Source of the DNA: Propionibacterium freudenreichii subsp. freudenreichii
GTDB lineage: Bacteria > Actinomycetota > Actinomycetes > Propionibacteriales > Propionibacteriaceae
NCBI RefSeq assembly: GCF_000940845.1
Contig: NZ_CP010341.1
Coordinates: 2,580,001 to 2,612,000 of the forward strand
Direction of reading: 5' to 3'
Length of the DNA: 32,000 nt
Both the position numbers and the translations under genes were made by a program. Shown here piece by piece: positions 1 through 32,000 of this stretch; the stretch's first letter is position 1, and each line of letters starts with the position of its first letter. Under the pieces are notes generated by a model that worked only from the letters and a program-made list of their open reading frames with translations, searched no databases and was not told the origin of the DNA.

Positions 1-73
1 ACCCCACACCGGGATCGGCGGCCAGACTCCCTCAGCCCGCGTTCACAACGTCACGGGGAAGTACAGCTAGACC

Positions 74-1099
74 CTAGAACGGTGCCTCGTCGCGTGTCGC
101 CCACGGGTTCGGGGGCGACGGCGGCAAGGCTCCCCCGGGCAGCGGCAGGTTGGTGACGACGTAGAGGTTCAAGATGTCGTCGCGGTCCATGAACATGATC
201 TGGCTCCGCTTGCTGGCATCGAGAGCGTTGCCGAGCCAGTTGCGAGCCGCCTTGGTGATCTCCCCGCCCGCCACGATGAAGGCGTGGTCAACCAAGACCC
301 GGCGGTTGGTCTCAGGATCGAAGATCTCGTGTGCCAGCATCATGAGCGCTTGGTTGTGGATCTCGGCCATGTTGGCGTTGCCGGTCTTGGTGACGCCTGA
401 GGCGTCGAGCTTGCCCTTCTTAGCCTGGATGCCGAAGTAGAGGATGTGCTGGGTCGGCAAGGTGTAGCGCATCCAGATGTCCTTGCCGTACTCCAGCGCC
501 TTGTCCTTGTGCCCGGCTGCCGTGATGCGGTGGTAGCCCAACTGTCTGAACAGCGGGAGGAGCACTTCCTCGATGAGATCATCCTCGCTGCACTGGTCGA
601 GGTAGGCCGTCAAGAGCTGCCGCCGCTCCAGTTCAGCCTTGCTGAAGGGGCGGTGCGGATTGGCGGCAAGGACAGTGACGGTCTGTGTGCCGACGTGGCG
701 GAGGTAGCAGTGGTTGTCTTCGCCGTAGAACGCCTCGAAACCTTCGCGACCGAGTACCTCGTTGAGTTGTGCCAGCGCACGAGGACGGTCGGGGCCTTCG
801 TTGAGCCGATCGGCTGGACTCATGAGTTGGTCAATGAGACGGCAGAAGACATCCGGGGGACGTGTGGGGCCGTCATGGGGTTCGGCCAGCATCTGTTCCA
901 ACACGTCCGCAACCCAGCGATGGCGGGTCGAGCCGTCGTGGTGGAACTCGGTCTCCAACTCTTGAAAGAACTCGGTGATGTACATGCTGGAGCGATACGG
1001 GAAGTACTTGGCTTCGTCCTCGTTTTCGGCGTCGTCACGACCCACGTTGCCCACGATGAGTGACCCGAGGGCTTCGAGGTTGCGGCGACGGAACTTCAC
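74..1099 (-). CDS. Mrr-like restriction-endonuclease-domain protein (D...QxK variant of PD-(D/E)xK) with an unassigned ~160-aa N-terminal domain
   Basis: 341-aa ORF with a GTG start at 1097-1099. The C-terminal half has the helix 'DDLIEEVLLPLFRQLGY', then 'YGKDIWMRY' (Asp codon 479-481) and 'YFGIQAKKGK' (Q-A-K codons 419-427). This is the D...IQAK(R/K) layout I recall for the E. coli Mrr catalytic domain. It is followed by 'FIVAGGEITKAA'. The N-terminal half is not recognised. Confidence 0.6.
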   Translation of the reverse strand: MKFRRRNLEALGSLIVGNVGRDDAENEDEAKYFPYRSSMYITEFFQELETEFHHDGSTRHRWVADVLEQMLAEPHDGPTRPPDVFCRLIDQLMSPADRLNEGPDRPRALAQLNEVLGREGFEAFYGEDNHCYLRHVGTQTVTVLAANPHRPFSKAELERRQLLTAYLDQCSEDDLIEEVLLPLFRQLGYHRITAAGHKDKALEYGKDIWMRYTLPTQHILYFGIQAKKGKLDASGVTKTGNANMAEIHNQALMMLAHEIFDPETNRRVLVDHAFIVAGGEITKAARNWLGNALDASKRSQIMFMDRDDILNLYVVTNLPLPGGALPPSPPNPWATRDEAPF

Positions 1100-1221
1100 G
1101 GGACCATTGTTGCAAGCGGGACCGACAAACGACCGGACTCCGTGGGCTGCGGCTGCACCGTCTGCCCCGGCATGCGGTGCCGCATCGGCTGAGTGTCAGT
1201 GTCACGTGCTCGAATAGACCC
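1100..1221. promoter_or_regulatory. Divergent intergenic region between the Mrr-like gene and the HEPN-led cluster; probable bidirectional promoter/operator
   Basis: 122-bp gap between two divergent start codons. It contains the inverted repeat ATGCGG-TG-CCGCAT (1172-1185) and the tandem GTGTCAGTGTCA followed by CACGTG (1193-1208). No confident -10/-35 assignment was possible. Confidence 0.3.
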
Positions 1222-1983
1222 ATGACTGTGGACGTGCGGCGCGCTGTTCTTGACCGCCTCGGCACTGGAGGTGCCTCGCGCTTTGGCCGCCCATACCTCG
1301 TGGCAACCCTTCACCGGGAAGTTGGCTGTTCCGAGACGGAAGTGTGGGAGGCCTTCTGGGGTCTGGTCGGTGAGGGACTGGTCTACCTCGACACCGCCGG
1401 CCAGGGATCAGGCACTGACAACTGGCAGTGGCACCTATCGACAGATGGCCGAAGGGTGGCTGAGGGCGGCTCCTGGGAGCCACGCGACCCCGACGGCTAC
1501 ATGGATCGGGTTCGACGAGACATCCCCGACTTGGACGAACTCGTGGAACTTTACCTGACAGAGGCGTTGCAGTCGTTCAACGGGCGATGCTACCTCGCCA
1601 CCTCCGTCATGCTTGGAGTCGCCGCAGAACGTGCCTTCCTGGTCATGGCTGCGTCCTACGCCGCCTCTACTGTCTCGGGCGCGCCGGCTATGGCCAAGGA
1701 GTTAGCGCGGCCGCGAAGCAACTACTTCGCCTTGTGGACGGAGTTCCGAAAGCGCATCGAGCCGATCCGCCAGGATCTGCCGGATGGGCTCGCCGACTCT
1801 CTCACGCTGGATGCCATCGCTGACCTGATCCGCCTGACCCGCAACGAGGTTGGCCACCCCACTGGCCGCCAGATTGACGAGGACACCGCTCGAGTTCACC
1901 TGACGATTGCTCCGACATACATGCGGAAGATGCGTGCGCTGACCGTCCACTTCGCCCAGAGGCCGGCGGAGGTGAACGAATGA
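1222..1983 (+). CDS. HEPN-domain protein (Rx4H motif) with a possible N-terminal winged-helix module
   Basis: ATG at 1222 inside the 1060-1983 ORF; the upstream GTG extension overlaps the divergent gene and reads as nonsense. The motif 'LTRNEVGHP' (R-N-E-V-G-H, nt 1840-1857) matches the HEPN R[polar]xxxH signature near the C-terminus of an all-helical region ('LTEALQSFNGRCYLATSVMLGVAAERAF'). The N-terminal ~90 aa ('VWEAFWGLVGEGLVYLD...WQWHLSTDGRRVA') looks wHTH-like; this part is inference only. Confidence 0.6.
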   Translation: MTVDVRRAVLDRLGTGGASRFGRPYLVATLHREVGCSETEVWEAFWGLVGEGLVYLDTAGQGSGTDNWQWHLSTDGRRVAEGGSWEPRDPDGYMDRVRRDIPDLDELVELYLTEALQSFNGRCYLATSVMLGVAAERAFLVMAASYAASTVSGAPAMAKELARPRSNYFALWTEFRKRIEPIRQDLPDGLADSLTLDAIADLIRLTRNEVGHPTGRQIDEDTARVHLTIAPTYMRKMRALTVHFAQRPAEVNE

Positions 1984-3440
1984 CGCAACTGCCGATGCCG
2001 GTCCACGTCGGATCCGAACCACCTGAGCATTGGGACGACATAGAGGCGCGACAACAGCAGTATGGCGACGATGCGGCACCATACCTGCGTGACAAACAAC
2101 GGCCGTCCATCGCCAGGCCAGACATTGACTGGGGTGCGCTTGGATTCGAGCCACGTTGGGTGGGTTTCGACGCCGCAGACTGCGCGGCTGCGTTGCAGCC
2201 GAGCATTTTCTCTGGTCAAGGCGCCGACGAGTTCAACCGCTTCCGTCAAGGTGCTGAGCGGCGGGGCGAGACAGCTCTAGTGATCAGCCCGATCGGTGAG
2301 ACCGAAGGCGCGTCTCGCAACGTGCACAACGTCTTCGATCCACCTGTCAGCTCGGTCTCGATTGGGCAGACCTACACGAGCATCGACGGTCGCACAATCG
2401 GCAAGGGCGCGCGGGTTCGGGCCGCCTCCGACCTCGATGATGCGGACGGCCAGCTCGCGCTCCGACTACTCAGCGCCACGCAGGCACCTACGTGGCGCAG
2501 CCTGTCGCTCAGCGGTGCAGTGTTGGAGTCCGTGTACGGCCGCGAGGACCACCCTCCCGAAGGAACGCTGCTGCCTATCTTGGAGACGGAGCTGGGCGAA
2601 CCAGTTGTGGCGGTCTGGATATCGCCGGATGGTGTGGAGCGACGCTACGTCGTTCCGGTCGAGACTTCCTGGACGCTGTTGCTTCCGTGGCTACTGGAAC
2701 AAGCGCTCCCGGCGTTCGTTCCTGGGGCGATGCGCCGTGCGCGGCGTCCGTTGACCTCAGACAGGGATCTGATGACTCGGCGTGAACGGGACGCCCATGC
2801 CGCGCTGGCCGATCTGGAGCTGGACTACGCCGCGCGCCGCATCGAACTTGAGCGCCAGATCGAGGACGCACAGGATGCCGCCGTGGCGACCCGCGAGGGA
2901 CTTCTTTACGGTACTGGCCAGCAACTGGTCAGCGCCGTTCGCGCCGTCTTCGAGACCGCTGGAATCGAGGTTGTTGACCTTGACGAGAAGCTCGGAGACA
3001 CCAAGAACGCCGACCTGCTCTGTACCTACGGAGGCTTGTCGCGATTGGTCGAGGTGAAGTCAGCGAACGGGAGCGCTCCCGAACGTGCCTACCAAGACTT
3101 GATCCGGCACCTACGTGAGTGGCCGAGCTTGCCGGGCGCTTCTCCGATCGACGGAGGCGCGCTTGTGATCAGTCATGATCTCCGCAAGGTGCCTCTTGAT
3201 CGGAGGCCGACGCCATACGCGAGGCCGGAGTTTTTGTTGGCGCAGACCGAGCCGGTGATCTCCGCGCTGGAACTCTTCGCGGCCTGGCGCGACGAGGACG
3301 TGGAAGCGATTCGTCAGCTGCTGTTCGGCTCAAGTGCCGCACCTGTGGGTAACTCGGCGGGGCAGGCCGGTGCCGCGGTTGTCGACGTCGATGCCGCCTC
3401 ATCCAGTCGCATCCTGCGACACTGGTTTGGGCGGCGCTGA
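1980..3440 (+). CDS. Coiled-coil protein with a C-terminal PD-(D/E)xK (restriction-endonuclease-fold) motif; N-terminal ~270 aa unassigned
   Basis: The ATG at 1980 overlaps the upstream TGA (ATGA) and has GGAGGTG 7 nt upstream, indicating translational coupling. The helical, charged segment 'RERDAHAALADLELDYAARRIELERQIEDAQDAA' is followed by 'AVRAVFETAGIEV...NADLLCTYGGLSRLVEVKS' (Asp codon 3012-3014; E-V-K 3051-3059), a classic D-x(n)-ExK arrangement. Confidence 0.6.
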   Translation: MTQLPMPVHVGSEPPEHWDDIEARQQQYGDDAAPYLRDKQRPSIARPDIDWGALGFEPRWVGFDAADCAAALQPSIFSGQGADEFNRFRQGAERRGETALVISPIGETEGASRNVHNVFDPPVSSVSIGQTYTSIDGRTIGKGARVRAASDLDDADGQLALRLLSATQAPTWRSLSLSGAVLESVYGREDHPPEGTLLPILETELGEPVVAVWISPDGVERRYVVPVETSWTLLLPWLLEQALPAFVPGAMRRARRPLTSDRDLMTRRERDAHAALADLELDYAARRIELERQIEDAQDAAVATREGLLYGTGQQLVSAVRAVFETAGIEVVDLDEKLGDTKNADLLCTYGGLSRLVEVKSANGSAPERAYQDLIRHLREWPSLPGASPIDGGALVISHDLRKVPLDRRPTPYARPEFLLAQTEPVISALELFAAWRDEDVEAIRQLLFGSSAAPVGNSAGQAGAAVVDVDAASSSRILRHWFGRR

Positions 3441-3718
3441 GTCAGGACCCGCTCAGCGCGGCCAATCCGAGCAGGGCCAGACAAGCGCCTACCGGGCAGG
3501 TGGGGTCTTCTGTGCGTAAGACATAACACTGCCGGACAACCTCGCCACCGAGGCCGAGAACCTCCATGAGTATGTCGTCGTCCCCGAACTGCTCCGCCTC
3601 AAGTACCGTTAACGCTGCAAGCAGTTCAAGGCCGTGATGACCTCCCTAGTTCCGAACCGGCGGGAGTTGGAGTAGAGCAGCAAGCACTCGGCGCAACAAC
3701 AGGCAGGCATTGACGCAC

Positions 3719-6292
3719 ATGGCATTTCTGGGCAAGACGAAGCGGGCGGTCCAACAGTTTCCGTCGCCGGAGGAGCTGTACCTCAGCGGGACTCTGCCAC
3801 GCACCACGGACGCTGTCGACTCTCTCTGGCTGCATCAGGGCGACGTCATCCGTGCCTACGCCGAGAACCACGTGGACACCCCGGACCTCGCGCTGGAGCT
3901 ACCGACGGGAACCGGCAAGACCCTGCCAGGTCTGCTCGTCGGGGAGTGGGTGCGACGTAAGGCCGAAGGTCCTGTTATCTACGCCACACCGACCAAGCAG
4001 CTCGCGCGTCAGGTGGCGGCGACCGCTGAGCGCGAGGGCATTGCGGCCGCGCTCCTGATCGGAAGTGCCAAGTACTGGGATCCGGCGGATGAGGCATCGG
4101 TCGAGGGTGGCGAGGCAATTGGGATCACGACTTACAGTGCGGTCTTCAACAGCAGTCCCAAGCTGCCCGAGCCCAGGCTCCTGATCTTCGACGATGCTCA
4201 CGCTGGCGAGCAGTTCGTGGGCAATGAGTATGGCATCAGCATCCGTCGCCACGACGATGAGGACGCATACCTCGAGGTCCTGGAAGGGCTGAAGCCGTTC
4301 CTGTCTGGACTCCTCATCCAGCGACTTGAAGGCGACCCCGATCCCGGCGCTCACCACCAAGTGCGCCTAATCCTGCCTGCGGTCGACCAGACGGCGCTGA
4401 CGAAGCTCGACGCCGTTTTGGCAGGTCTGCCCAAGCCTCACTCGTACAAGCTCGCTATGATCCGGCCGGGCCTGGCAGCCTGCTGTGTCTACCTGTCCTA
4501 CGGCGGTATCCAGATCCGCCCGATGATCCCGCCGACGTACGAGAACCGTGTCTTCGCTCGCGCCAAGCAGCGCATCTACCTGTCGGCGACTCTAGGCTCT
4601 GGCGGGGAACTGGAGCGCGCCTTCGGTCGGCGTGAGATCGTGCGAATGCCGCTTCCGACCAAGACACCTCCTCGCTCTGGCCGGAGGCTGTTCGTCTTCC
4701 CTGACTTGGTCAAGGACGGAGACGCAGTGGAGCTGACGAAGCAGATAGTCGGCCTCACCGACAAGGCGCTCGTGCTCAGCCAGGAGACCATCGCCAACAC
4801 CGAGGCGACAGCGAAGGCACTGGCCGGCAACGACGTGCCGGTCATGGGACGGGACGATCTAGAACGGAACGGCTTGGAGTCATTCGCGAAGGCTTCGAGT
4901 GGAGTACTCGGGCTGGCCAATCGTTATGACGGACTCGATCTGCCCGGCAAAGCCTGCCGGATTGTTGTCCTTGACGGGAGACCGGACGCAGTCGGGCTAC
5001 AGGAGCGATTCCTGAGTGAGCGGGCAGAGGCCAACGCAGCCCTCGCAGAGCGCCTCCGTACCCGCATCGTGCAGGGCGCCGGGCGCTGCACCCGTGGCCC
5101 GAACGACTACGCCGTGGTCGTCGTGCTCGGTTCGGACATCATGAAGTACTTCTCTAGGCCCGAGAACCTCAAGGCACTCGAACCGGAGCTACAGGCCGAG
5201 GTTGAGTTCGGTTGGCAGAACAGCAGGGGCACCGATCCCGACGAGATAATCGAGAACGTCGGAGTGTTCCTCGAACACGGTGCCGACTGGCGTAAGCAGG
5301 GTGAGCCCATGGTGGCCGAGTTCCGGCAGGACGCCGTCAAAGTCGAGGCTCCTGGAACAGATGCTCTCGGCAAGGCCGCGGCGCTTGAGGTTGAGGCCTG
5401 GCAGCTGGCATTCGGGGGCGACTGGATAGGTGCCAGCGAGAAGATGCAGGAAGCGGTGCCCCATGTCGGCCCTGAGGCAACGCGCGGCTACCGCGGTCTG
5501 CTGCTGTACATCGCAGGTGTGTGGCTGCACCTTGGAGCCCAGGATGAAACCCAGCGATCACGTGCCCGACAGCTCGTTCGAGAGGCCGCTCTCGCGGCCA
5601 ATCGCGGCACCTGGCTCAAGGAGATGCGAGAACTGCCTGGCGCCGAGGAGGTTCCGCTTGTCCTCGAGGACATCGTGGCTGTGAACCAGGTGGTCGCCCG
5701 CCTGCGTGGACAGATCAAGCCGAAGCGGATCAACACAGCCCTCACCGAGATGCAGGAATCACTCGACCAGGATGAAGCCATCAGGTATGAACGCGGTTTG
5801 ACGACTCTCGGGTCGTTCCTCGGGGCGGAGGCTTCTAAGCCGAAGGGCCAGGGCCGCTGCGACTCCGCCTGGGTATGGGGCACCGCTATGTGGATGACCA
5901 TCGAGGCGAAGTCGGAGGAGCACAACGGCGGCCTGCTTCCGCTGAAGGACGTTCGCCAGGCCAACACTCAGCTCGACCAGCTGGCGGCGGACAGAGGGAT
6001 GGATCACCCGCCGGCGGGTAGTCCAGCGATCATCGTGTCGGACAAACTGTCGGTGGACCCGCAGCATGCTCAAGCGGCGAACCCCAACGTCTACCTGACA
6101 TCGACCAGGGTCGTGGGGGAGATAGCCAGTGACGTTGCCGTCGTCTGGGCGGACCTGCTTACGACCGCCATCGGTATTGCCTCCGAGCATGCCCAGAAGC
6201 AGCACGTCCGGTCTGTCATGACCGAGAACGGCTGTCTGCCGAGTCAGGTGATTGATCGGCTCGCGCAGAACCGGATCAGGCCCGGCCACTGA
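3719..6292 (+). CDS. SF2 helicase of DinG/XPD (Rad3)-like type lacking Fe-S cysteines, fused to a C-terminal PD-(D/E)xK-like module
   Basis: The ORF track starts at TTG 3710; the first ATG is at 3719. Helicase motifs seen: motif I 'LPTGTGKT' (GTGKT at 3908-3922), Ia 'YATPTKQLARQV', II 'LLIFDDAH' (DDAH at 4190-4201), III 'SAT' (4583-4591). 'GLANRYDGLDLPGKACRIVVLDGRP' and motif VI 'QGAGRCTR...DYAVVVVLGSD' (5072-5095) resemble the DinG Helicase_C_2 pattern. There are no Cys residues between motifs I and II. The C-terminal ~150 aa carry 'GRCDSAWVWGTAMWMTIEAKSEE' (Asp 5861-5863; E-A-K 5903-5911). Confidence 0.8.
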   Translation: MAFLGKTKRAVQQFPSPEELYLSGTLPRTTDAVDSLWLHQGDVIRAYAENHVDTPDLALELPTGTGKTLPGLLVGEWVRRKAEGPVIYATPTKQLARQVAATAEREGIAAALLIGSAKYWDPADEASVEGGEAIGITTYSAVFNSSPKLPEPRLLIFDDAHAGEQFVGNEYGISIRRHDDEDAYLEVLEGLKPFLSGLLIQRLEGDPDPGAHHQVRLILPAVDQTALTKLDAVLAGLPKPHSYKLAMIRPGLAACCVYLSYGGIQIRPMIPPTYENRVFARAKQRIYLSATLGSGGELERAFGRREIVRMPLPTKTPPRSGRRLFVFPDLVKDGDAVELTKQIVGLTDKALVLSQETIANTEATAKALAGNDVPVMGRDDLERNGLESFAKASSGVLGLANRYDGLDLPGKACRIVVLDGRPDAVGLQERFLSERAEANAALAERLRTRIVQGAGRCTRGPNDYAVVVVLGSDIMKYFSRPENLKALEPELQAEVEFGWQNSRGTDPDEIIENVGVFLEHGADWRKQGEPMVAEFRQDAVKVEAPGTDALGKAAALEVEAWQLAFGGDWIGASEKMQEAVPHVGPEATRGYRGLLLYIAGVWLHLGAQDETQRSRARQLVREAALAANRGTWLKEMRELPGAEEVPLVLEDIVAVNQVVARLRGQIKPKRINTALTEMQESLDQDEAIRYERGLTTLGSFLGAEASKPKGQGRCDSAWVWGTAMWMTIEAKSEEHNGGLLPLKDVRQANTQLDQLAADRGMDHPPAGSPAIIVSDKLSVDPQHAQAANPNVYLTSTRVVGEIASDVAVVWADLLTTAIGIASEHAQKQHVRSVMTENGCLPSQVIDRLAQNRIRPGH

Positions 6293-6320
6293 GGGGGAGC
6301 GGCAAGTCCTCCCAGCGTGA

Positions 6321-6605
6321 TCACAGCAAGTCCTTCGTGTGCGTCCACACGGTCATCCGGTGCACGCCGAACCGCCGGGAGATCGACACCACGCTCTCGC
6401 CGTTCGCTCGGGCAGTTCGGATAGCGTCCACTTGGCTCTCCGTCAGCGGTGTTCTAGCTCGTCTCCTAGGGTTCGCCACGACGCCGAGGTCGTCCTCGAC
6501 GGCAGCTTCCGGCTCATCGCCGAGACCGAGTTTCGCCTGCTTCCACGCGGAACCAAGCCGCTCGAACCTCTGCCAGGTGTTCGGTTTGAGTCCACTCGCG
6601 TCCAC
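6321..6605 (-). CDS. Small helix-turn-helix protein (resolvase/Hin-type HTH); possibly a relic of a recombinase or mobile-element gene
   Basis: 94-aa ORF with a GTG start and no internal ATG before the HTH. 'RRRARTPLTESQVDAIRTARANGESVVSISRRFGVHRMTVWTHTKD' fits the GRP..L...q...i....G.s...ia...gv.r.TvyR pattern of serine-recombinase C-terminal HTH domains. No resolvase catalytic domain is present. Confidence 0.45.
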   Translation of the reverse strand: MDASGLKPNTWQRFERLGSAWKQAKLGLGDEPEAAVEDDLGVVANPRRRARTPLTESQVDAIRTARANGESVVSISRRFGVHRMTVWTHTKDLL

Positions 6606-6697
6606 AATTCTTGAGGTGCACGGGGCCCGTTGTGCGAGGGCCGGTGCACATGGCTTCCCCGGATCCCCCGCTCACTCTGTGCGCCCCCGCCCAGTTC

Positions 6698-6731
6698 ATG
6701 GTTGTGGTGGTGGGACGCGTCGAAACCAACC
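6698..6731. repeat. Interspersed repeat family 3, copy 1 (ATGGTTGTGGTG..GACGCGTCGAAACCA.CC)
   Basis: 30 of 34 positions are identical to 26315-26348. It contains the 8-bp palindrome GACGCGTC. Confidence 0.7.
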
Positions 6732-6750
6732 GGGACGCGCTGATCCCGCA

Positions 6751-6800
6751 GGATAGGTGCGGATAAAGCACCGTCTTTGGTGCCTAATCCGCACCTATCC
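6751..6800. repeat. Interspersed palindromic repeat family 1, copy a (imperfect hairpin)
   Basis: GGATAGGTGCGGATAAAGCACC-gtcttt-GGTGCCTAATCCGCACCTATCC. The arms are 22 nt with 2 mismatches. It is homologous to 17696-17743 and 26079-26126. Confidence 0.8.
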
Positions 6801-6840
6801 TCGAGTCCCCGGCCATGGCACCGCACGCCGGGCAGGCCCG

Positions 6841-6890
6841 GGATGGGGAGGACCTTTACGTCGTCTAACCTGCAAAGGTCCTCCCCATCC
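6841..6890 (-). terminator. Perfect 17-bp-stem hairpin immediately downstream of the ltrA-family gene; putative intrinsic terminator
   Basis: GGATGGGGAGGACCTTT (6841-6857) and AAAGGTCCTCCCCATCC (6874-6890) are exact reverse complements, with a 16-nt loop. It begins 10 nt past the stop at 6901-6903. There is no U-tract, so terminator function is inferred only. Confidence 0.5.
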
Positions 6891-6900
6891 GCCGGTCCAC

Positions 6901-8102
6901 CTATGCGTCGCGCGACTGGCGCCGCAGCTCGGCGAAGTACAGGCGCTCGAAGACCACGAGTACGACGAGCACCATCGTCACCGCCGCCAGTCCCCCGAGG
7001 GCGGGCAGCCTGATGATCGCGGGCGCGAGCCCCACCAGGATGACCAGGGCACAGGCACGCGCGACGTTCCTGGCGCGCTGCACGCGGAGGTCAAAGATTA
7101 GGTGCCCGATGAGGTGGAGCGCCACGCCACCCACGAGGCACAGGCCGTAGAACGCACCGAGGGACTCGTCCGTGCCGGCCAGGCGCAGGGCACCCTCCAC
7201 GCCGACCGCCGCGAGGAGGACCCCGCAACCAGGGGAAAGTGGCCATAGACGTAGGCCTCAAAGGCGATGCGGATACGTTCGGTGCCCGCCAACTCGGCAA
7301 CGCGTCGCCCCGTGGCCGCCGCCACGAGATCGAAGTAGAGCCACCACAGGCAGATCGCGAGCACGACACCCAGCCCGGCCGCCAGCAGCAGCGGGATCGT
7401 GAGCGGATGCTCCCCGGCCCCGACCCCGACGGCCACCAGCGATTCGCCCAGGACGATCAGCACGAACAGCTCGAAGCGCTCCGTCCAATGGGAGGCGCTG
7501 TAGATGCGCCAACTCCCGTGCCGCGACGTGAGGTAGACCGACAGCCACTCCCCCAGCATTGCGATGGCGAACAATGCGGTCTGCGCCTGCCCGCCCACCA
7601 CGACGCCGATCACCAGCAGCACGGCCTGCACGAGCAGTGGCAACCGGGAAATGGCGATCTGCCGGCGCAGTCCGGCGTCATCCCGGGCGGCGATCGTGTA
7701 GACGACGAGATGAACCAGCCGCACGAACAGATACGCACTCACCAGGACGACGGGCCCGGGCAGCCCCTCGCCGGCGCTGTCCCATGCCGACGGAATCGCC
7801 AGGGCTATGACGAAGACGCCGACGAGTGCGAGGCCGAACCCGACCGCGCCGAGTCCGACATCGGCGCGCAGCTGGTTCCCCAGCCAGACGAACGTGCACC
7901 AGGTCCACCACAGCATCCCGAACAGGATCAGGCCGTGCGGCACCCCCTCGGCACCGTGCTCGTGGGAGATGAGGTCGGTGACCTGGGTGACGGCGAACAC
8001 GTACACGAGGTCGAAGAACAGCTCGAAGGTCGTGGCCCCCTCACCCGCGTGTGGACGAGCGTGCCGCAGCCCCCGCGCCCGGGCAGGTAATGCACCATCC
8101 AT
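6901..8102 (-). pseudogene. ltrA: Low-temperature-requirement protein A (LtrA) family membrane protein, interrupted by a 1-nt frameshift
   Basis: The 7098-8102 ORF carries the LtrA-type N-terminus 'FELFFDLVYVFAVTQ' and multiple TM segments, but turns into non-hydrophobic nonsense after 'AYVYGHFPLVAG'. The hydrophobic continuation ('VLLAAVGVEGALRLAG...LVVLVVFERLYFAELRRQ') lies in the frame of ORF 6901-7200. The frames join if one base is added to the C4/G4 run at 7221-7224, giving about 400 aa. Confidence 0.7.
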
Positions 8103-8468
8103 GCTCGAATCCCCTCATCCAGATGAACACTCGATCGCCGGCCGTTCAATTTCCGGTAACAAGAATAATCGGGGCCCAGAATGGCGCTCGGGCAATACCA
8201 GCCGACGAGAACCCGATCACCTTGATGAAGGCGCTCATTGGTTGCACGCAATTCACCCCCGGACCGACAATGTGCGCCCGGCGCCGGGGCTGGTTCCCCG
8301 TCCGCGCCTGGCACATGCAGCACCAACAGGCTCGTGGCTACGCGTTACACCACCGCCCCGGGCGCCCCCCATGCCACCCTGAGTGACGGCATTGCCGCCC
8401 GCGTGCCACGGCGGGAAGGCCACCACCCGGGCATTCCGGGCGCATCCATCGCATGGCATAATCGCCGC

Positions 8469-8705
8469 ATGAATGACATCGTGGCAAACCTCACGGCACA
8501 ACCGATCCTCGGGGTCGGCACCGTGCTGTTCGTTATTGGCCTCGGGTTTGCCGTGCTCTTCGGATTGTCCTTCCGAATTCGGGCGGTGCTCAACAAGCGG
8601 GCGTGGAACGGGCCGACGCGTCCCTTCTTCTTCCTCATGTTGCTGACGCTGATTCCGGGCATCGCCCTCATCGGGCTCCAGCTCTGGCTGAACCAGGGCC
8701 ACTAG
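8469..8705 (+). CDS. Small two-TM membrane protein (hypothetical)
   Basis: ATG at 8469 within ORF 8238-8705. 'MNDIVANLTAQPILGVGTVLFVIGLGFAVLFGL...FFFLMLLTLIPGIALIGLQLWL' gives two clear hydrophobic helices. The region upstream in the ORF is R/P/A-rich nonsense. Confidence 0.4.
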   Translation: MNDIVANLTAQPILGVGTVLFVIGLGFAVLFGLSFRIRAVLNKRAWNGPTRPFFFLMLLTLIPGIALIGLQLWLNQGH

Positions 8706-8760
8706 CCGCCGCCACATCGGGCGGCGCCCACCATGGGCGCTCGGCACGCGGCCGCGCAGT

Positions 8761-8797
8761 GGGCGGGTCGCGCGCCACCCGGGCGCGCAACCCGCCC
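8761..8797. terminator. GC-rich hairpin between convergent genes (putative bidirectional terminator)
   Basis: GGGCGGGTCGCGCGCC (8761-8776) pairs with GGCGCGCAACCCGCCC (8782-8797): a 16-bp stem with one mismatch. It lies between the stops at 8705 (+) and 8806 (-). Confidence 0.4.
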
Positions 8798-8805
8798 CAC
8801 ATGCG

Positions 8806-10020
8806 TCAGCCCTCGGTCACCGAACCCAGGATCACCGACAGTTCGGCGAAGCCACTGGCCGGATAGCTGGCGTACTGCGACGTGGCCGCACGGTCGGGCG
8901 TGATCGTGCCGGTTGCCGCCAGCAATTCCTGGGTGAGCATGCGCAGCTCGAGGCGCGCCAACGGCGCACCCGGGCAGACGTGGATCCCGGCCCCGTAGAG
9001 CAGGTTGTCCTCGCGCGGACGATCAAGGCGGAACTCATTGGGATCGCCGAACACGTCCTCGTCGCGGTTGGCCGATGCCCACAGGATCGTCAAGCGCTCC
9101 CCCGGCTCAAACTGGCGTCCGCCGATCTCGGTGGGCTCGGCCACCACGCGACGGTTCGAGATGAGTGGCGGATGAATGCGCAGGATCTCGTCCACCGCAT
9201 CGTCGAGCGTGGCAGGCGAGCCGGCCTTGGCACGCATCAGGCTCTGCACATCGGGATGTTCGGCAAGGTGGTCGACGACGATGCCCGCGGCGGCCGAGAT
9301 GGTGCTCAGCTCGCCCACCGTCCAGTTGCGCAGGATCGACACCAACTCGCCGTCATTCAGCACTCGGCCGTCGACCTGCTCCTTCATCAGGCGGGTGGTC
9401 AGGTCGTCCGGGGCGGCGTCGCCCATGGCGCGTCGCTTGTCGAGCAGGCCGGTGATGTAGCCATCGAACTGCTCGGCCACGGCGGCGGTGGCGGCCCGGT
9501 CGCCGGACGCGGTGGCCCGGCGGTTGCTCAGCGTCCACTCACGCAACGGTTCGCGCAGGCGCTCCGGCCATCCCAGGTAGGCCGACTGCACCTGCAGGGC
9601 GAAGGGCTCGGCCAGGTCGTTGACGATGTCGGCCGGCTTGTCGCGGGGCAGCGCGGCGATCAGGTCCGCGGCGATCGCCCGGCAGGCCGGCTCGAACGCA
9701 TCCACGACCTCCTGGGTGAAGTAGCGGTCGACGATCGTGCGGTACACGGTGTGTTCAGGCGGGTCCATGCCGTTGGGCACCGCGACGTGCTTCGAGACGA
9801 CCGCGGAGAAGGTGCGGGTCTGGGTGGCGGCGCGCAACACATCGTCGTGGCGCAACAACGACCAGCCCATCTGCTCGCTGTGGGCCACGGGGCACCGGGC
9901 GCGCAGCGCGTCGTAGGCGGCGATCTGGTTGTCCAGCACCTCGGGGGCGCGAGGATCCCATTCGTACGACTGCGGTTCGTGCGGGGCGGGGTTGTCGCGA
10001 GAGGGAGTGTCGGAAGTCAT
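8806..10020 (-). CDS. Cytochrome P450
   Basis: Heme-thiolate loop 'YGAGIHVCPGAPLARLE' (FxxGxxxCxG type), 'ILRIHPP' (ExxR region) and an overall length of ~400 aa. The ATG at 10020 ('MTSDTPSRD') is preferred over the ORF-track start at 10068. Confidence 0.9.
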   Translation of the reverse strand: MTSDTPSRDNPAPHEPQSYEWDPRAPEVLDNQIAAYDALRARCPVAHSEQMGWSLLRHDDVLRAATQTRTFSAVVSKHVAVPNGMDPPEHTVYRTIVDRYFTQEVVDAFEPACRAIAADLIAALPRDKPADIVNDLAEPFALQVQSAYLGWPERLREPLREWTLSNRRATASGDRAATAAVAEQFDGYITGLLDKRRAMGDAAPDDLTTRLMKEQVDGRVLNDGELVSILRNWTVGELSTISAAAGIVVDHLAEHPDVQSLMRAKAGSPATLDDAVDEILRIHPPLISNRRVVAEPTEIGGRQFEPGERLTILWASANRDEDVFGDPNEFRLDRPREDNLLYGAGIHVCPGAPLARLELRMLTQELLAATGTITPDRAATSQYASYPASGFAELSVILGSVTEG

Positions 10021-20973: not shown

Positions 20974-21014
20974 CAGTCCCGCCCACCGATCACGTGGATC
21001 GGCCGGCGGGACTG
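20974..21014. terminator. Nested hairpin between convergent genes (putative bidirectional terminator)
   Basis: CAGTCCCGCC (20974-20983) pairs with GGCGGGACTG (21005-21014). An inner stem CCGATC / GATCGG surrounds ACGTG. It lies between the stops at 20923 (+) and 21064 (-). Confidence 0.5.
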
Positions 21015-21063
21015 TTGTGTCACATCAGCTCAGGCCATCGCGGGCACATGCCCTTGGGCGTGC

Positions 21064-22512
21064 TCAGATGCGTCCGGCGATATCGGCACCCACTTCGGCG
21101 TCGATCTTCGTCCAGTATTCGACGATGCGGCTGCGCACCGGCTCCACCACATCGGTATTCACGATCTGGTCGACGATCGTATTCACCAATTGGGCCCGGT
21201 CCTCCTCGCTGAACACATCGCGCACCAGCGCATGGGCCTGGCCGAAGTCGTCGTCCGACGAATGCAGCGTGGCCGAGGCACGCACCAGGTCGCCATCGGA
21301 CTCCCACGAGTCCTCGGCCCGGCCGCCACCCTCGGCCCACGGACGTCCCGCCGAGTTGGGCGCATAGACCGGCGCTGCCCCCGAATGGTCGAAGCGCATG
21401 TGGCCGTCGAAGGTGTACGCGTTGGTCGGGATGACCGGGCGGTTCACCGGCAGCTGCTCGAAGTTCGCCCCGATGCGGTTGCGCGCCGCATCGTTGTAGG
21501 CGAACACGCGGCCCATGAGCATCTTGTCGGGCGAGATGCCGGTGCCCGGCACGTAGTTCGACGGTGAGAAGGCGGCCTGCTCGATCTCGGCGAAGAAGTT
21601 GTCGGGATTGCGGTCGAGCGTGAACCGACCCACATCGATCAGCGGGTAGTCGCCGTGCGGCCACACCTTCGTGAGGTCGAACGGATTGAACCGGTACTCG
21701 CGGGCATCGTCGTAGGGCATCACCTGCACCTTGACGTCCCAGCTGGGGAAATCACCATCGGCGATGGCGTCGAACAGGTCCTGACGATGGAAGTCGGCAT
21801 TATCGCCGGCGATCTCAGCAGCCTCCGCAGCCGTCATGTTCCGCACGCCCTGCGCGCTGATGAAGTGGTACTTCACCCAGAACAATTCGCCGCCAGCATT
21901 GATCCATGAATAGGTATGCGACGAATAGCCGTTCATTTCACGCCAGGTGGCCGGAAGGCCACGCGGCCCCATCAGATATGCCACCTGGTGGGCAGATTCG
22001 GGCGACAGCGTCCAGAAGTCCCACTGCATATTGGGGCTGCGCAGGCCAGAATCAGGAAGCCGCTTCTGCGACCGAATGAAATGCGGGAACTTCATCGGAT
22101 CGCGCATGAAGAACACCGGCGTGTTGTTGCCGACCATGTCGAAGTTTCCCTGCTGGGTGTAGAACTTCAACGCGAAGCCGCGCACATCGCGCCAGGTGTC
22201 GGGCGATCCCTGCTCGCCGGCCACGGTGCTGAACCGGGCCAGCATCGGGGTGCTGCGGCCCGGCTGCAGGAAGTCGGCCTTCGTATAGGCGGTGACGTCG
22301 CCGGTGACGGTGAAGGTGCCGAAGGCGCCGGAGCCCTTTGCATGGGGGCTGCGCTCGGGCACGCGTTCACGGTTGAAATGGGCCAGGGTCTCAACCAGAT
22401 GCACATCATGCAGTGCAATGGGGCCGTCCGCACCGACAGTGAGCGAGTGCTCCTCGCTCGCCGCCGGGGCACCGTTCTCCTGGGTGGGGCTGGCTTTCGG
22501 ATCGATAGGCAT
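21064..22512 (-). CDS. katA: Monofunctional heme catalase (small-subunit type)
   Basis: '[22 protein letters not shown]' is the distal His region and '[15 protein letters not shown]' the proximal Tyr region. The protein is 482 aa. The Shine-Dalgarno sequence GGAGAC precedes ATG 22512. Confidence 0.95.
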
Positions 22513-29487: not shown

Positions 29488-29787
29488 ATGTCGACGCGCG
29501 ACGACTACGCCGGGCTGAGCGACACGGTGCTCTACGACGTGTTCTACGAGGCCGGGACCATGGTCGGCGGAGCTCTTGTGGCGTCCTGGCGGCGCGCTGA
29601 GGCGGCCGGCGACCAGGTGGCTGCGCAGCAGTTCCGGGATGAGCATTTTTCCGTTAACCATGAACGCAACGCGGTGGCGGCCCGGGATCGTGAGGGCCAG
29701 ATCGCGTGGATCCTTCGGTGGGAGGCCCGCCGTGAGGAGCTTCGGCGGGCCGCCGACGGCGATGACACCCGGCCCGCCAGTCACTGA
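29488..29787 (+). CDS. Hypothetical helical protein (99 aa)
   Basis: ATG at 29488 has AGGAGG 8 nt upstream. 'MSTRDDYAGLSDTVLYDVFYEAG...' has protein-like composition. No family was recognised. Confidence 0.4.
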   Translation: MSTRDDYAGLSDTVLYDVFYEAGTMVGGALVASWRRAEAAGDQVAAQQFRDEHFSVNHERNAVAARDREGQIAWILRWEARREELRRAADGDDTRPASH

Positions 29788-30282
29788 CTGAATCCCCCGC
29801 AAACAGCGCTGAGGGGCGCTCCAAGACCAGCTGACGGGCGCCCTGAAGCTCTCATCTCGCGTTGTAACCACATATTGATACGACACAACAAGACCGCGGG
29901 CCACCGCCGTTCTGTCATGCCGGAGCACGCTCTGCCCGGTGAAACAATGATGGCAAACCACCGGTGACTCAACCGGAGGGCCCGGACAACCATGCCCCTA
30001 TTTCGATGAAGAGGAAGAAACCAGTAGTAGCCCACAGGAGTTTTCGAGGAAGCCTCACGCGTCTTTCATAGAAGACCTAGCAATCTTGAGGCACTGGATG
30101 GGAAAATACTCCCAAAAACCTATTGCGCCAACAAACCTGCTGACAATGGTCTACGAGTAAAGACAATCCGAAGTAGTCCCTTGCGGGAACGACGCCGTTG
30201 CGCGGAACGTTATCGTCGCGCAGGGGTCAGGATGCTTCTGCTTTCGCCACCGATATAGGTGGCCGTCGTGCGGGCCGCCGGG

Positions 30283-30516
30283 TCAGTGGCAGCAGCAGGC
30301 GCCGCCGTCGTCGCAGGTCTTCACGGTGCGTCCGTCAGCGGTGACGACGACCTTCTTCTTGGGCCAGAAGTGCGACACCGCACCGAGCGCCGCGCCGGTG
30401 CCGATCGCCAGCACGATGGCCGATTGCACGTCGGTTGCGAACCAGCCGATGCCGAAGACGACGATGCATGCGGCGGCGATGATCACCAGACGCTGCCAGC
30501 TGGTCTGCTTGTTCAT
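30283..30516 (-). CDS. Small two-TM membrane protein with a C-terminal Cys cluster (…TCDDGGACCCH)
   Basis: 77-aa ORF with an ATG start. It has two hydrophobic helices ('LVIIAAACIVVFGIGWF' and 'AIVLAIGTGAALGAV'), a basic 'WPKKK' stop-transfer segment and a soluble tail ending in CCCH. It sits in a low-GC islet and has a weak RBS. Confidence 0.35.
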   Translation of the reverse strand: MNKQTSWQRLVIIAAACIVVFGIGWFATDVQSAIVLAIGTGAALGAVSHFWPKKKVVVTADGRTVKTCDDGGACCCH

Positions 30517-30742
30517 AAGGCAACCCTAAGTTCTCGGCCGGCGAACGTCCACCCCGTCCACGCGCGAGGACCATCCAGCGGTCACTTTGGACGCATTCCC
30601 AGCCGCATCTGCACGATTTCCCGACTGCCGAAGGCCTCACCCCCGGAACTGGGCCCCTAGCCAGCTGGGCAACTGAGCAGCACGCGCCGGACTCTCAACG
30701 CCCCCACGCATCCCACCCGGGAAACACCGTGACCAACGACCG

Positions 30743-31156
30743 CTAGTTGCCCATCGGCGAAAGGCCCTGGGGCGTGTCCACGGGTGTCGCTGTCCTGTTC
30801 GGAGAGGGGCGCTTGAGACTGGAGAGAATCGCCACGACGCATGCGAAGAGCCCCAGCAGTGGGATCTGCGACCAAGCGGTCATGCCTCCTCGGAGCAGCC
30901 CTCCGCTGCCCCAGATGAGGAACAGCACCACGATGCAGAAGCCCTTGATCCACGACCCTGCACTTTCCGAACCAGAGGCATACCGGACAAGCAATACCAA
31001 TCCTGCACAGACAAGTAACAATGCTGCCACCAGTGCAAGGATGAGCGGCCCCGACCACGATGCCTTCATATCAACCAGGTCGGCGACGATCGACCAGAAC
31101 ATGAAAGCCATGAAGGCAATCATGAGACCACACACCCGCTTTGTCCTCGTGTCCAT
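30743..31156 (-). CDS. Four-TM membrane protein (hypothetical)
   Basis: ATG at 31156 ('MDTRTKRV') has GAGGGAAAG upstream; the ORF-track GTG at 31222 is less likely. There are four hydrophobic segments. The gene is clearly less GC-rich than its surroundings. No family was recognised. Confidence 0.45.
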   Translation of the reverse strand: MDTRTKRVCGLMIAFMAFMFWSIVADLVDMKASWSGPLILALVAALLLVCAGLVLLVRYASGSESAGSWIKGFCIVVLFLIWGSGGLLRGGMTAWSQIPLLGLFACVVAILSSLKRPSPNRTATPVDTPQGLSPMGN

Positions 31157-31318
31157 AATGTTCTTTCCCTCTTCATCATCCCTTGTGGAACAGTTGTCCC
31201 CATGTCGTTGAATTACATGCACTAAACCGTGCAGTGTGCCCCAGCCGCGTCGGACAGCGCAGGGGCTGGACAGCCGGGGGTGGACCCGAAGACCCGCCCC
31301 CCGACTGTCGCGCGGCGA

Positions 31319-32000
31319 TCAGGTGAGCGAGGCCGCAGCGATCTTGTTGATCGACGCCTCGAGCTTGCCGTCGAAGTCCTCTGGGCTGTCGTCCACCGAC
31401 AGGCCCTCCGACAGGGCACGCGAGAAGCTGGCGATCAGGCCATGGTTGCGGGCCAGGCGCTCGCAGGCCTCGTCGCGGCTGAATCCGCCCGACAGCGCCA
31501 CGACGCGCAGCACCCGCGGGTCGGCGATCAGGTCGGCGTACAGATCGTCCTTCACCGGGATCGAGACCTTGAACATCACCTGCTGGCCCTCGGCCAGGCC
31601 GTCCAGGTGGCTGGCCAGCTGGTCATGCAGCACCTGCTCGCTGGCCTCGCGATCGGTGGCGGTGATGTCGGCCTCCGGCTCGAGGATCGGCACCAGGCCC
31701 TTTGCCAGGATCTGCGCGCCAAGCTCGAACTGCTGGTCGACAATCGCCTTGATTCCCTGCGCGTCGTGATGGGCGATCACCGAGCGCATCTTGGTGCCGA
31801 AGATGCCCTTGGCCACGGCACGGTCAAGCAGCTTGTCCAAGTCGGGAATCGGCTTCATGAGCTTGACGCCATGAGCTTCCTCGCCAAGGCCCTTGTCAAC
31901 CTTGAGGAACGGCACGATGCGCTTGCGCTCCCACAGGAACTGCGCGGTCGGCACGTCATCCACGGTGTTGTCCATGGTGCGCTCGAAGAGGATCGCGGCG
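31319..32000 (-). CDS. fda: Class I fructose-bisphosphate aldolase (Fda type), 5' end outside the window
   Basis: 'VPFLKVDKGL', 'GIFGTKMRS', 'AKGLVPILEPE', 'VVALSGGFSR' and 'LIASFSRAL' are collinear with the Staphylococcus-type class I Fda as I recall it. The reading frame stays open upstream of the listed Met to the window edge. Confidence 0.85.
   Translation of the reverse strand, partial: AAILFERTMDNTVDDVPTAQFLWERKRIVPFLKVDKGLGEEAHGVKLMKPIPDLDKLLDRAVAKGIFGTKMRSVIAHHDAQGIKAIVDQQFELGAQILAKGLVPILEPEADITATDREASEQVLHDQLASHLDGLAEGQQVMFKVSIPVKDDLYADLIADPRVLRVVALSGGFSRDEACERLARNHGLIASFSRALSEGLSVDDSPEDFDGKLEASINKIAAASLT

Follow-up and report, generated by a model that had tools for sequence, protein, structure and literature searches.

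Four adjacent genes at the left end of a DNA stretch from Propionibacterium freudenreichii subsp. freudenreichii (contig NZ_CP010341.1, positions 2,580,001 to 2,612,000; all 32,000 nucleotides are hereafter called the window) all code for predicted nucleic-acid-targeting proteins, and the question raised by this locus is whether they work together. An initial annotation, made from the sequence alone, had proposed that the four genes, here named A to D, form one undescribed defense system in which a helicase is combined with several nucleases. We found it likely that the locus is a composite island rather than one system, and that it holds three independent nucleic-acid-targeting modules: a helicase-nuclease of the Hna family (D), a coupled gene pair (B-C) and a lone nuclease (A). 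The features on which this analysis is based are as follows (strand in parentheses).

1..73: sequence running into an insertion sequence (IS) element just outside the window
74..1099 (-): gene A, 341 aa
1141..6320: B-C-D indel block, 5,180 bp, with an 80-nt leader and a 28-nt trailer, between A and the recombinase 3' remnant
1222..1983 (+): gene B, 253 aa
1840..1857 (+): codons of the HEPN motif RNEVGH (Rx4H) in B, residues 207-212
1980..3440 (+): gene C, 486 aa, whose ATG overlaps the TGA of B as ATGA
3488..3504 (+): terminator-like hairpin, 48 nt past the stop of C
3710..6292 (+): gene D, 860 aa from TTG 3710, 857 aa from ATG 3719
6321..6605 (-): 94-codon open reading frame (ORF), the "HTH relic" of the initial annotation
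6321..6614 (-): 3' remnant of a serine recombinase gene, comprising its last ~97 codons with a helix-turn-helix (HTH), weak HTH matches in Pfam

All four ORFs and every motif coordinate quoted for them translated as had been described (gene callers choose ATG 3719 over TTG 3710 as the start of D), and the domains called at that time, i.e., a Mrr-like D..QxK nuclease in A, an Rx4H HEPN domain in B, a helix followed by D..ExK in C, and a DinG-like superfamily 2 (SF2) helicase with D..ExK in D, were essentially correct. The proposed catalytic motifs were invariant in alignments of A (21 sequences), B (31), C (20) and D (9), and ratios of nonsynonymous to synonymous substitution rates (dN/dS) of 0.11-0.21 across all five genes pointed to purifying selection. 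Identical proteins are present in P. freudenreichii assemblies. As the initial annotation had remarked, no methyltransferase or cas gene was found in the region; tRNA and Rfam RNA were also not found there, nor in the window as a whole.

By homology, D is a full-length member of the already characterized Hna family. The PADLOC model PDC-S28 matched it from end to end (E 3.7e-94; D 13-856 against model 13-841 of 846), and the sole strong match of D among PDB sequences was an 845-aa chain of entries 10UJ, 9YHN and 9YKJ (E 2.5e-30 with a single sequence), which is Hna of Sinorhizobium meliloti (PMC13381803). When a profile composed of D and eight homologs at 27-70% identity was used, the match to this protein had an E of 5e-74 and covered D 10-757 (of 860) and Hna 11-753. 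This alignment extended into the nuclease domain, in which D713 and E727-C-K729 of Hna corresponded to D718 and E732-A-K734 of D; K729A is the published nuclease-dead mutant of the S. meliloti enzyme (PMC13381803). Residues G67, G69, K70, T71, D161, D162, A163, H164, D718, E732 and K734 were invariant in these nine sequences, and the corresponding motifs are GTGKT (residues 67-71), DDAH (161-164) and EAK (732-734). The helicase part of D had Pfam DEAD and Helicase_C_2 matches and aligned with HEL1 and HEL2 of Hna. Between Walker A (residue 71) and DDAH (residue 161), where DinG and XPD carry a 4-Cys Fe-S insert, D has no Cys. DinG-type matches in PADLOC, NCBIfam and PHROG were partial only, and the PADLOC models for DinG, Cas3 and PbeA matched D partially and in the helicase motifs only. 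The initial annotation had set Hna aside because it is a single protein, and D proved to be that single protein. Its statement that the locus resembles no named system stands for B and C and does not hold for D, the one gene placed by profile searches in a named family.

Hna is a lone-protein abortive-infection defense in S. meliloti (PMC13381803, PMC12445080; the family is credited to Sather et al. 2023, as cited in PMC13381803). It is a 3'-5' exonuclease of single-stranded DNA; it is kept auto-inhibited as an ATP-bound dimer and is activated by SSB, the phage's binding protein for single-stranded DNA (PMC13381803, PMC12445080). D resembles it in length (860 vs 845 aa), in the N-terminal DinG-like SF2 helicase with ATP-binding motifs kept and no Fe-S cluster in either protein, in the C-terminal PD-(D/E)xK nuclease, where K734 aligns with the catalytic Lys K729, and in the occurrence of its family as single genes on plasmids and islands. 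On the other hand, D is at most ~30% identical to the solved protein, its last ~100 residues are unaligned, and it is co-inherited with B-C here and in one Nocardioides genome. Activity and the SSB trigger were shown in S. meliloti; by homology, the actinobacterial D would act alone as a 3'-5' exonuclease of single-stranded DNA, would be held as an ATP-bound auto-inhibited dimer and, upon release by phage SSB, would cause abortive infection. PDC-S28 is likewise a single-gene entry that matches D from end to end, but it is a computational candidate label; a literature search on PDC-S28 and on defense inventories of P. freudenreichii yielded nothing specific to genes A-D.

The distribution of D homologs was consistent with a stand-alone gene. 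They occurred on 241 plasmid records, and in the eight neighborhoods inspected D was alone or beside unrelated genes (type I restriction-modification (R-M), a PIN/HTH pair, ParB and others), with neither B nor C nearby. Among these neighborhoods were those of 67-70% identical copies on Rhodococcus pLW3 and on a Mycobacterium pseudoshottsii plasmid. Four lineages were seen to have D with at least 67% identity, and B-C was present in two of them. The ~100-nt leader 5' of D aligned clearly with that of the Nocardioides copy and showed patchy similarity only to that of the pLW3 copy, which has no B or C.

A different picture was obtained for B and C, which, judging from sequence comparisons, are a conserved and translationally coupled pair, undescribed in the libraries searched. 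Searches of A, B and C against Pfam, NCBIfam, PADLOC-DB 2.0 and PHROGs found nothing significant, and the same was true of single-sequence PDB searches. In PADLOC-DB 2.0, none of the three had a match at E up to 1, hence no marker of the named multi-gene systems considered (Hachiman, Gabija, Shedu, Mokosh, Zorya, type III R-M and CRISPR). A scan with the C profile of one genome per species detected 15 loci; in 10 of these B lay directly 5' of C, and the two genes overlapped by 4 nt wherever this was checked. We also carried out a metagenome scan seeded with B, which gave 80 loci: C was just downstream in 18 of the 22 with B at least 67% identical, and among the 58 with B at 33-61% identity none had C or another conserved partner. 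Since B lies directly 5' of C in most of the genome loci and in most of the metagenome loci with B at least 67% identical, B-C may be regarded as a unit. The order B, C, D suggested by the initial annotation was conserved for the first two genes only: D followed C in 1 of 15 genome loci and A was found in none of them, and both genes were missing from the B-C loci among the 80 metagenome contigs and from four further C loci. The hairpin 3' of C provides a weak indication that B-C is transcribed separately from D, given that six terminator-like sites were found vs 3.4 expected.

Within this pair, dependence is asymmetric. Intact C genes, encoding relatives 71-83% identical to C, followed decayed 3' remnants of B in Nesterenkonia (L001), Cellulomonas (L122) and Citricoccus (L124); B has been lost repeatedly, with C retained. 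The remnants, some with in-frame stops, were located at ~9900-10000, ~6960-7000 and 6802-6974 of the respective loci. In Agromyces (L126), C without B adjoined a type I R-M system, and C homologs at 38-42% identity were solo genes on plasmids of Streptomyces, Rhodococcus and mycobacteria. The dN/dS of C genes without B was 0.16-0.18, which indicates purifying selection. In another locus (L125), the slot of B was occupied by a 476-aa Shedu-type gene (5574-7004, plus strand; SduA_C, E 3.8e-12), with C starting at 7001. This gene kept both the ATGA junction and the last codons of B (..PAEVEA and stop), which suggests a cassette replacement by recombination near the 3' end of B. Because B of this clade is rarely seen without C and C remains intact and selected after loss or replacement of B, this B appears to depend on C and not the reverse. 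Two related loci without B, L004 (8829-10061) and L013 (11187-12155), had a gene of the HEPN family Hypoth_Ymh (PF09509) downstream of C, whose HEPN domain is unrelated to B; the two Ymh proteins were 88% identical over ~200 aligned residues, so they represent one evolutionary event.

The genomic context of the pair was examined with 123 ORFs from 21 loci, each no more than 6 kb away from B-C or C. Neighbors detected by PADLOC (E ≤1e-10) included Gabija (GajA, GajB), Azaca (ZacB, ZacC), MADS, Menshen NsnA, AriA, components of type I and type II R-M systems, PDC-S53 and PDC-S28, and Pfam identified six phage-type integrases, transposases and a relaxase. This context of defense islands and mobile elements makes a defense role of B-C plausible.

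Gene B is predicted to encode a winged helix (residues ~1-80) and a HEPN-type domain (~100-250), i.e., a putative RNase. The HEPN signature is Rx4-6H in which R is immediately followed by a polar residue, namely N, D or H (PMC3710099), a definition that R207-N208-E-V-G211-H212 fits. Of these residues, R207, N208, G211 and H212 were invariant in 31 sequences down to 36% identity, as were E114 and E136, and E174-F-R-K-R178, kept in at least 90% of the sequences, fits Ex3R. Homologs of B numbered 336. In the AlphaFold model of B (predicted local distance difference test score (pLDDT) 86), residues 1-80 matched winged helices of MarR/PadR type (Foldseek probability 1.0; template modeling (TM) score to the target up to 0.66). 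Past residue 90 the model had helices only, and the motif was placed between two of them (193-204 and 220-245). Since B and C were submitted to Foldseek as whole-protein models with domains uncropped, the list for B was dominated by its winged helix; the HEPN part had no match. DUF4145, a HEPN family, matched 4 of 31 members below threshold (best E 0.0035). A widened B-family profile had no significant PDB match (a "Dandelion-hepn" chain appeared at E 0.6; under this name nothing relevant was found in the literature), and hhalign of B with the Ymh HEPN protein of L004 aligned only the RNExxH segment (probability 0.2). The metagenomic relatives of B at 33-61% identity (L045-L105) kept RNxxGH invariant and were solo genes in varied contexts with no conserved neighbor; a wider family of stand-alone winged HTH (wHTH)-HEPN proteins thus appears to exist.

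Gene C, for which 221 close homologs and 634 representatives at 50% clustering were found, all of the named ones from Actinomycetota, is predicted to combine a nuclease core of PD-(D/E)xK type with a preceding long helix and an N-terminal domain that is new. The N-terminal domain (~1-255) is family-specific and beta-rich at 125-226. A single 44-residue helix (267-310) follows in the AlphaFold model, which had a moderate pLDDT of 68. In the core (314-397), DSSP assigned helix 314-326, strands 330-333, 344-350 and 353-360, helix 369-383 and strand 390-397. D345 opens strand 2 (344-350) and E358-V-K360 (the EVK motif, residues 358-360) lies in strand 3, which is the PD-(D/E)xK layout; E325, D345, E358 and K360 were invariant in 20 sequences. 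Neither Pfam nor PDB sequences matched C, and Foldseek gave weak matches, all with E >0.05, to nuclease domains of Shedu, Cap4, XisH, FokI, Kpn2I and McrC. No C homolog was found in phage genomes. Another protein, P0506, had a counterpart of the N-terminal ~250 residues of C (36% identity; hhalign probability 99.8), located after an AbiTii domain to which it is fused. P0506 (L116, 6001-8025) has 674 aa, an AbiTii match at E 1.6e-27 and a differing C-terminal part, and its gene lies between a transposase and a resolvase.

Two known groups of proteins are relevant to the pair. Domain logic similar to that of B plus C is found in the EC042_2821 fusions (wHTH-HEPN-restriction endonuclease (REase), overlapping DUF3644) and in the DUF4145 HEPN-REase fusions (PMC3710099), which also bring together a winged helix, a HEPN Rx4H motif and a REase-fold DNase in defense or R-M neighborhoods without a methylase of their own. 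However, the B-C domains are split over two overlapping genes, C adds an N-terminal domain of ~255 aa and the long helix, neither B nor C has a significant Pfam match to DUF3644 or DUF4145, and C is able to exist without a HEPN partner. As to Shedu (SduA), its nuclease domain was the second-ranked Foldseek match of C (E 0.07, TM 0.17/0.35; not significant) and an SduA_C gene fills the slot of B in L125, but C itself has no SduA_C/DUF4263 match in Pfam or PADLOC. We infer that C would be an autonomous core, in which the N-terminal domain probably senses, the long helix probably dimerizes and the PD-(D/E)xK domain cleaves DNA. B would be a dependent accessory, a winged helix with a HEPN RNase, and would most likely add to C an RNA-cleaving (abortive) arm or, via the winged helix, regulatory control.

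The third module, A, is predicted to be a stand-alone abortive-infection (Abi)-type nuclease with an AbiJ-NTD3-like N-terminal half and a Mrr-like REase C-terminal half. Pfam AbiJ_NTD3 and Mrr_cat matched 11 and 5 of the 21 family members, respectively, all below threshold (best E 0.0056 and 0.01), and no PDB match was found. The Mrr-like core consists of E178, D207 and Q225-A-K227. An E-rich helix lies ahead of D207...Q225-A-K227, an order also found in Mrr-type enzymes; D207, Q225 and K227 were invariant in 21 sequences, and dN/dS was 0.11. AbiJ-NTD plus REase is a recognized architectural class of predicted abortive-infection proteins (PMC3710099; Anantharaman et al. 2013), to which A is similar in having an AbiJ-NTD3-like domain and a REase-fold nuclease. 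It differs in that both of its domain matches are below Pfam thresholds, and its combination is unlisted: Mrr-type REases are listed with NTD1 and NTD2, and DUF2726 with NTD3 (PMC3710099). More than 3755 homologs of A were found, and among the matches listed identity was 75-94% across many actinobacterial genera.

Analysis of the sequences flanking A indicated how the island is built. Window 6614-6324 corresponds (78%, tblastn) to residues 619-715 of a large serine recombinase of 716 aa, the gene for which is intact in locus L128. The "HTH relic" is thus a real ORF that represents the 3' end of the gene for such a recombinase. L133 has a different recombinase ORF of 666 aa with the same terminal segment, and the 5' parts of the L128 and L133 genes could not be aligned as DNA. 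In eight contigs (L127-L134, ~3613-3906) whose upstream flanks vary, the boundary is identical and lies ~285 nt before the stop of the recombinase gene. Because this boundary is shared despite the differing flanks, the element seems to recombine at a site within the recombinase gene; integration would split this gene and excision would join it again. We therefore regard 6321-6614 as the predicted end of an integrated conjugative element and A, outside the B-C-D block, as its first cargo gene. In nine other loci a 94%-identical A lies 61-95 bp past the stop of the 94-codon ORF, without B-C-D. In these loci (L106, L127-L134), A always has on its 3' side a conflict cluster of convergent orientation (CTD10/DUF2326-MC6-CTD10), accompanied by a TrwC relaxase; P. 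freudenreichii has in place of both an IS (rve_3), which lies immediately outside position 1 of the window, so that window 1-6614 represents the IS-truncated end of the element. A is kept apart from B-C-D because elsewhere it is on another element and never beside B, C or D.

Comparison with Enemella evansiae (L106) defined the insertion. Positions 7613-7898 of this locus correspond to window 6606-6321 (86%) and positions 7960-9036 to window 1140-64 (87.6%), and these segments, which flank the B-C-D site, are only 61 bp apart. Window 1141-6320 is accordingly a 5,180-bp indel with exactly B, C and D, and eight more contigs had the same uninterrupted arrangement of recombinase end and A. A single insertion of 5.2 kb between A and the 3' end of the recombinase gene would have brought in B-C-D; a repeat scan found no direct repeats flanking the block. 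GC content was 0.63-0.65 over 1-6500 vs 0.66-0.72 over the next 14 kb, i.e., ~4-6 points below the surroundings, and the shift coincides with the recombinase remnant and so with the end of the mobile element. The lower GC content noted earlier and the reading of this region as horizontally acquired defense-type DNA were both borne out.

We consider the composite island of three independent modules the probable explanation of these observations. Several points nevertheless weigh against it or against the roles given to its parts. B-C-D is a single indel here, and the three genes are also together, with similar dS, in Nocardioides lijunqiniae (L010). The P. freudenreichii contigs shown with A or C end 30-145 nt past the A stop, at the IS; one of them has an rve_3 transposase fragment past that stop. 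PADLOC-DB 2.0 dates from 2023, and a system named later could include B-C. The assignment of B to the HEPN fold and that of C to the REase fold were each deduced from an invariant motif, AlphaFold topology and sub-threshold matches, with no significant Foldseek or hidden Markov model match. Finally, that A, B and C act against phages is argued from guilt by association alone.

A more specific reading of the pair, which we hold tentatively and as clearly less likely than the composite island itself, is that B-C is an undescribed anti-phage system built around C. Its coupled 5' slot would take interchangeable nucleases, mostly wHTH-HEPN proteins and, in L125, a Shedu-type one, with Ymh downstream in L004 and L013, and in P. 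freudenreichii and one Nocardioides the system would be packaged with Hna as a co-mobilized block.

We consider it rather unlikely that the three genes B, C and D function as one unit in this lineage, with B-C modulating Hna or serving as its backup, e.g., through a second abortive arm triggered by inhibition of Hna. The indel holds exactly these genes, their order is the same in Nocardioides L010 at ~70% DNA identity with co-divergent dS (1.3-1.7 for the three genes), and B-C accompanies D in half of the four lineages mentioned above. However, no D accompanies C in the 14 remaining genome loci, in the metagenome loci that had room downstream or in the loci of the four closest relatives of C, and the closest plasmid relatives of D have no B-C. 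Also, C and D are separated by a 270-nt gap with the terminator-like hairpin, the D leader is patchily similar to that of a Rhodococcus copy without B-C, and Hna works alone in S. meliloti (PMC13381803, PMC12445080).

We give a similarly low chance to the possibility that B-C is a toxin-antitoxin-like addiction module of mobile elements, with B (the HEPN RNase) as toxin and C as its neutralizer. An asymmetry of the kind observed, with B of this clade almost never without C and C surviving without B, is what a toxin paired with an antidote would be expected to show; toxins of the HEPN type are common (PMC3710099), and the loci are found on plasmids and beside integrases. But C is large (486 aa), its nuclease triad is invariant and it has been under selection long after the loss of B, unlike an orphan antitoxin. 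Besides, the neighbors are mostly defense systems, and the B relatives at 33-61% identity are solo, without a conserved partner.

For B-C-D, a conventional R-M system with its methylase just upstream is unlikely, since the block is a self-contained insertion. Least probable by far is a single four-gene system with helicase sensing coupled to several nucleases, for although the genes are adjacent, share a lower GC content and all target nucleic acids, A is missing from every other C or B locus, is a divergently oriented gene of another widespread element in which it lies 61-95 bp from the recombinase end without B-C-D, and D is a self-sufficient known system (PMC13381803).

Other features of the window lie outside the island. 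Two strong hairpins (6750-6801 and 6841-6890; 23-nt arms at 91% complementarity and 17-nt perfect arms, respectively) are located between the element boundary and the 3' end of an LtrA-family gene (7098-8102, minus strand), and they are probably terminators of this chromosomal gene. Further dips in GC content (0.62-0.64) were observed at 29500-32000, where several ORFs of 150-220 aa have no Pfam match, and at 21000-22500, where a catalase gene (21064-22512, minus strand) adjoins a Dyp-type peroxidase.

The analysis of this locus illustrates that nuclease and helicase genes may be neighbors in an island without forming one system; one of them here is an already solved defense protein. The sole possibly new item is B-C, a compact candidate of 2.2 kb that is widespread in Actinomycetota, as judged by the 634 C-family representatives, and missing from the family and defense libraries searched. 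Its wHTH-HEPN-REase logic is known from computational surveys, and what appears new are the families, the split-gene form and the swappable 5' slot. The asymmetry of the pair, in which B needs C and not the reverse, yields testable predictions. Dairy propionibacteria suffer phage attack during cheese making, and they would possess, on a mobile-element remnant, a Hna-type defense together with two further candidate modules.

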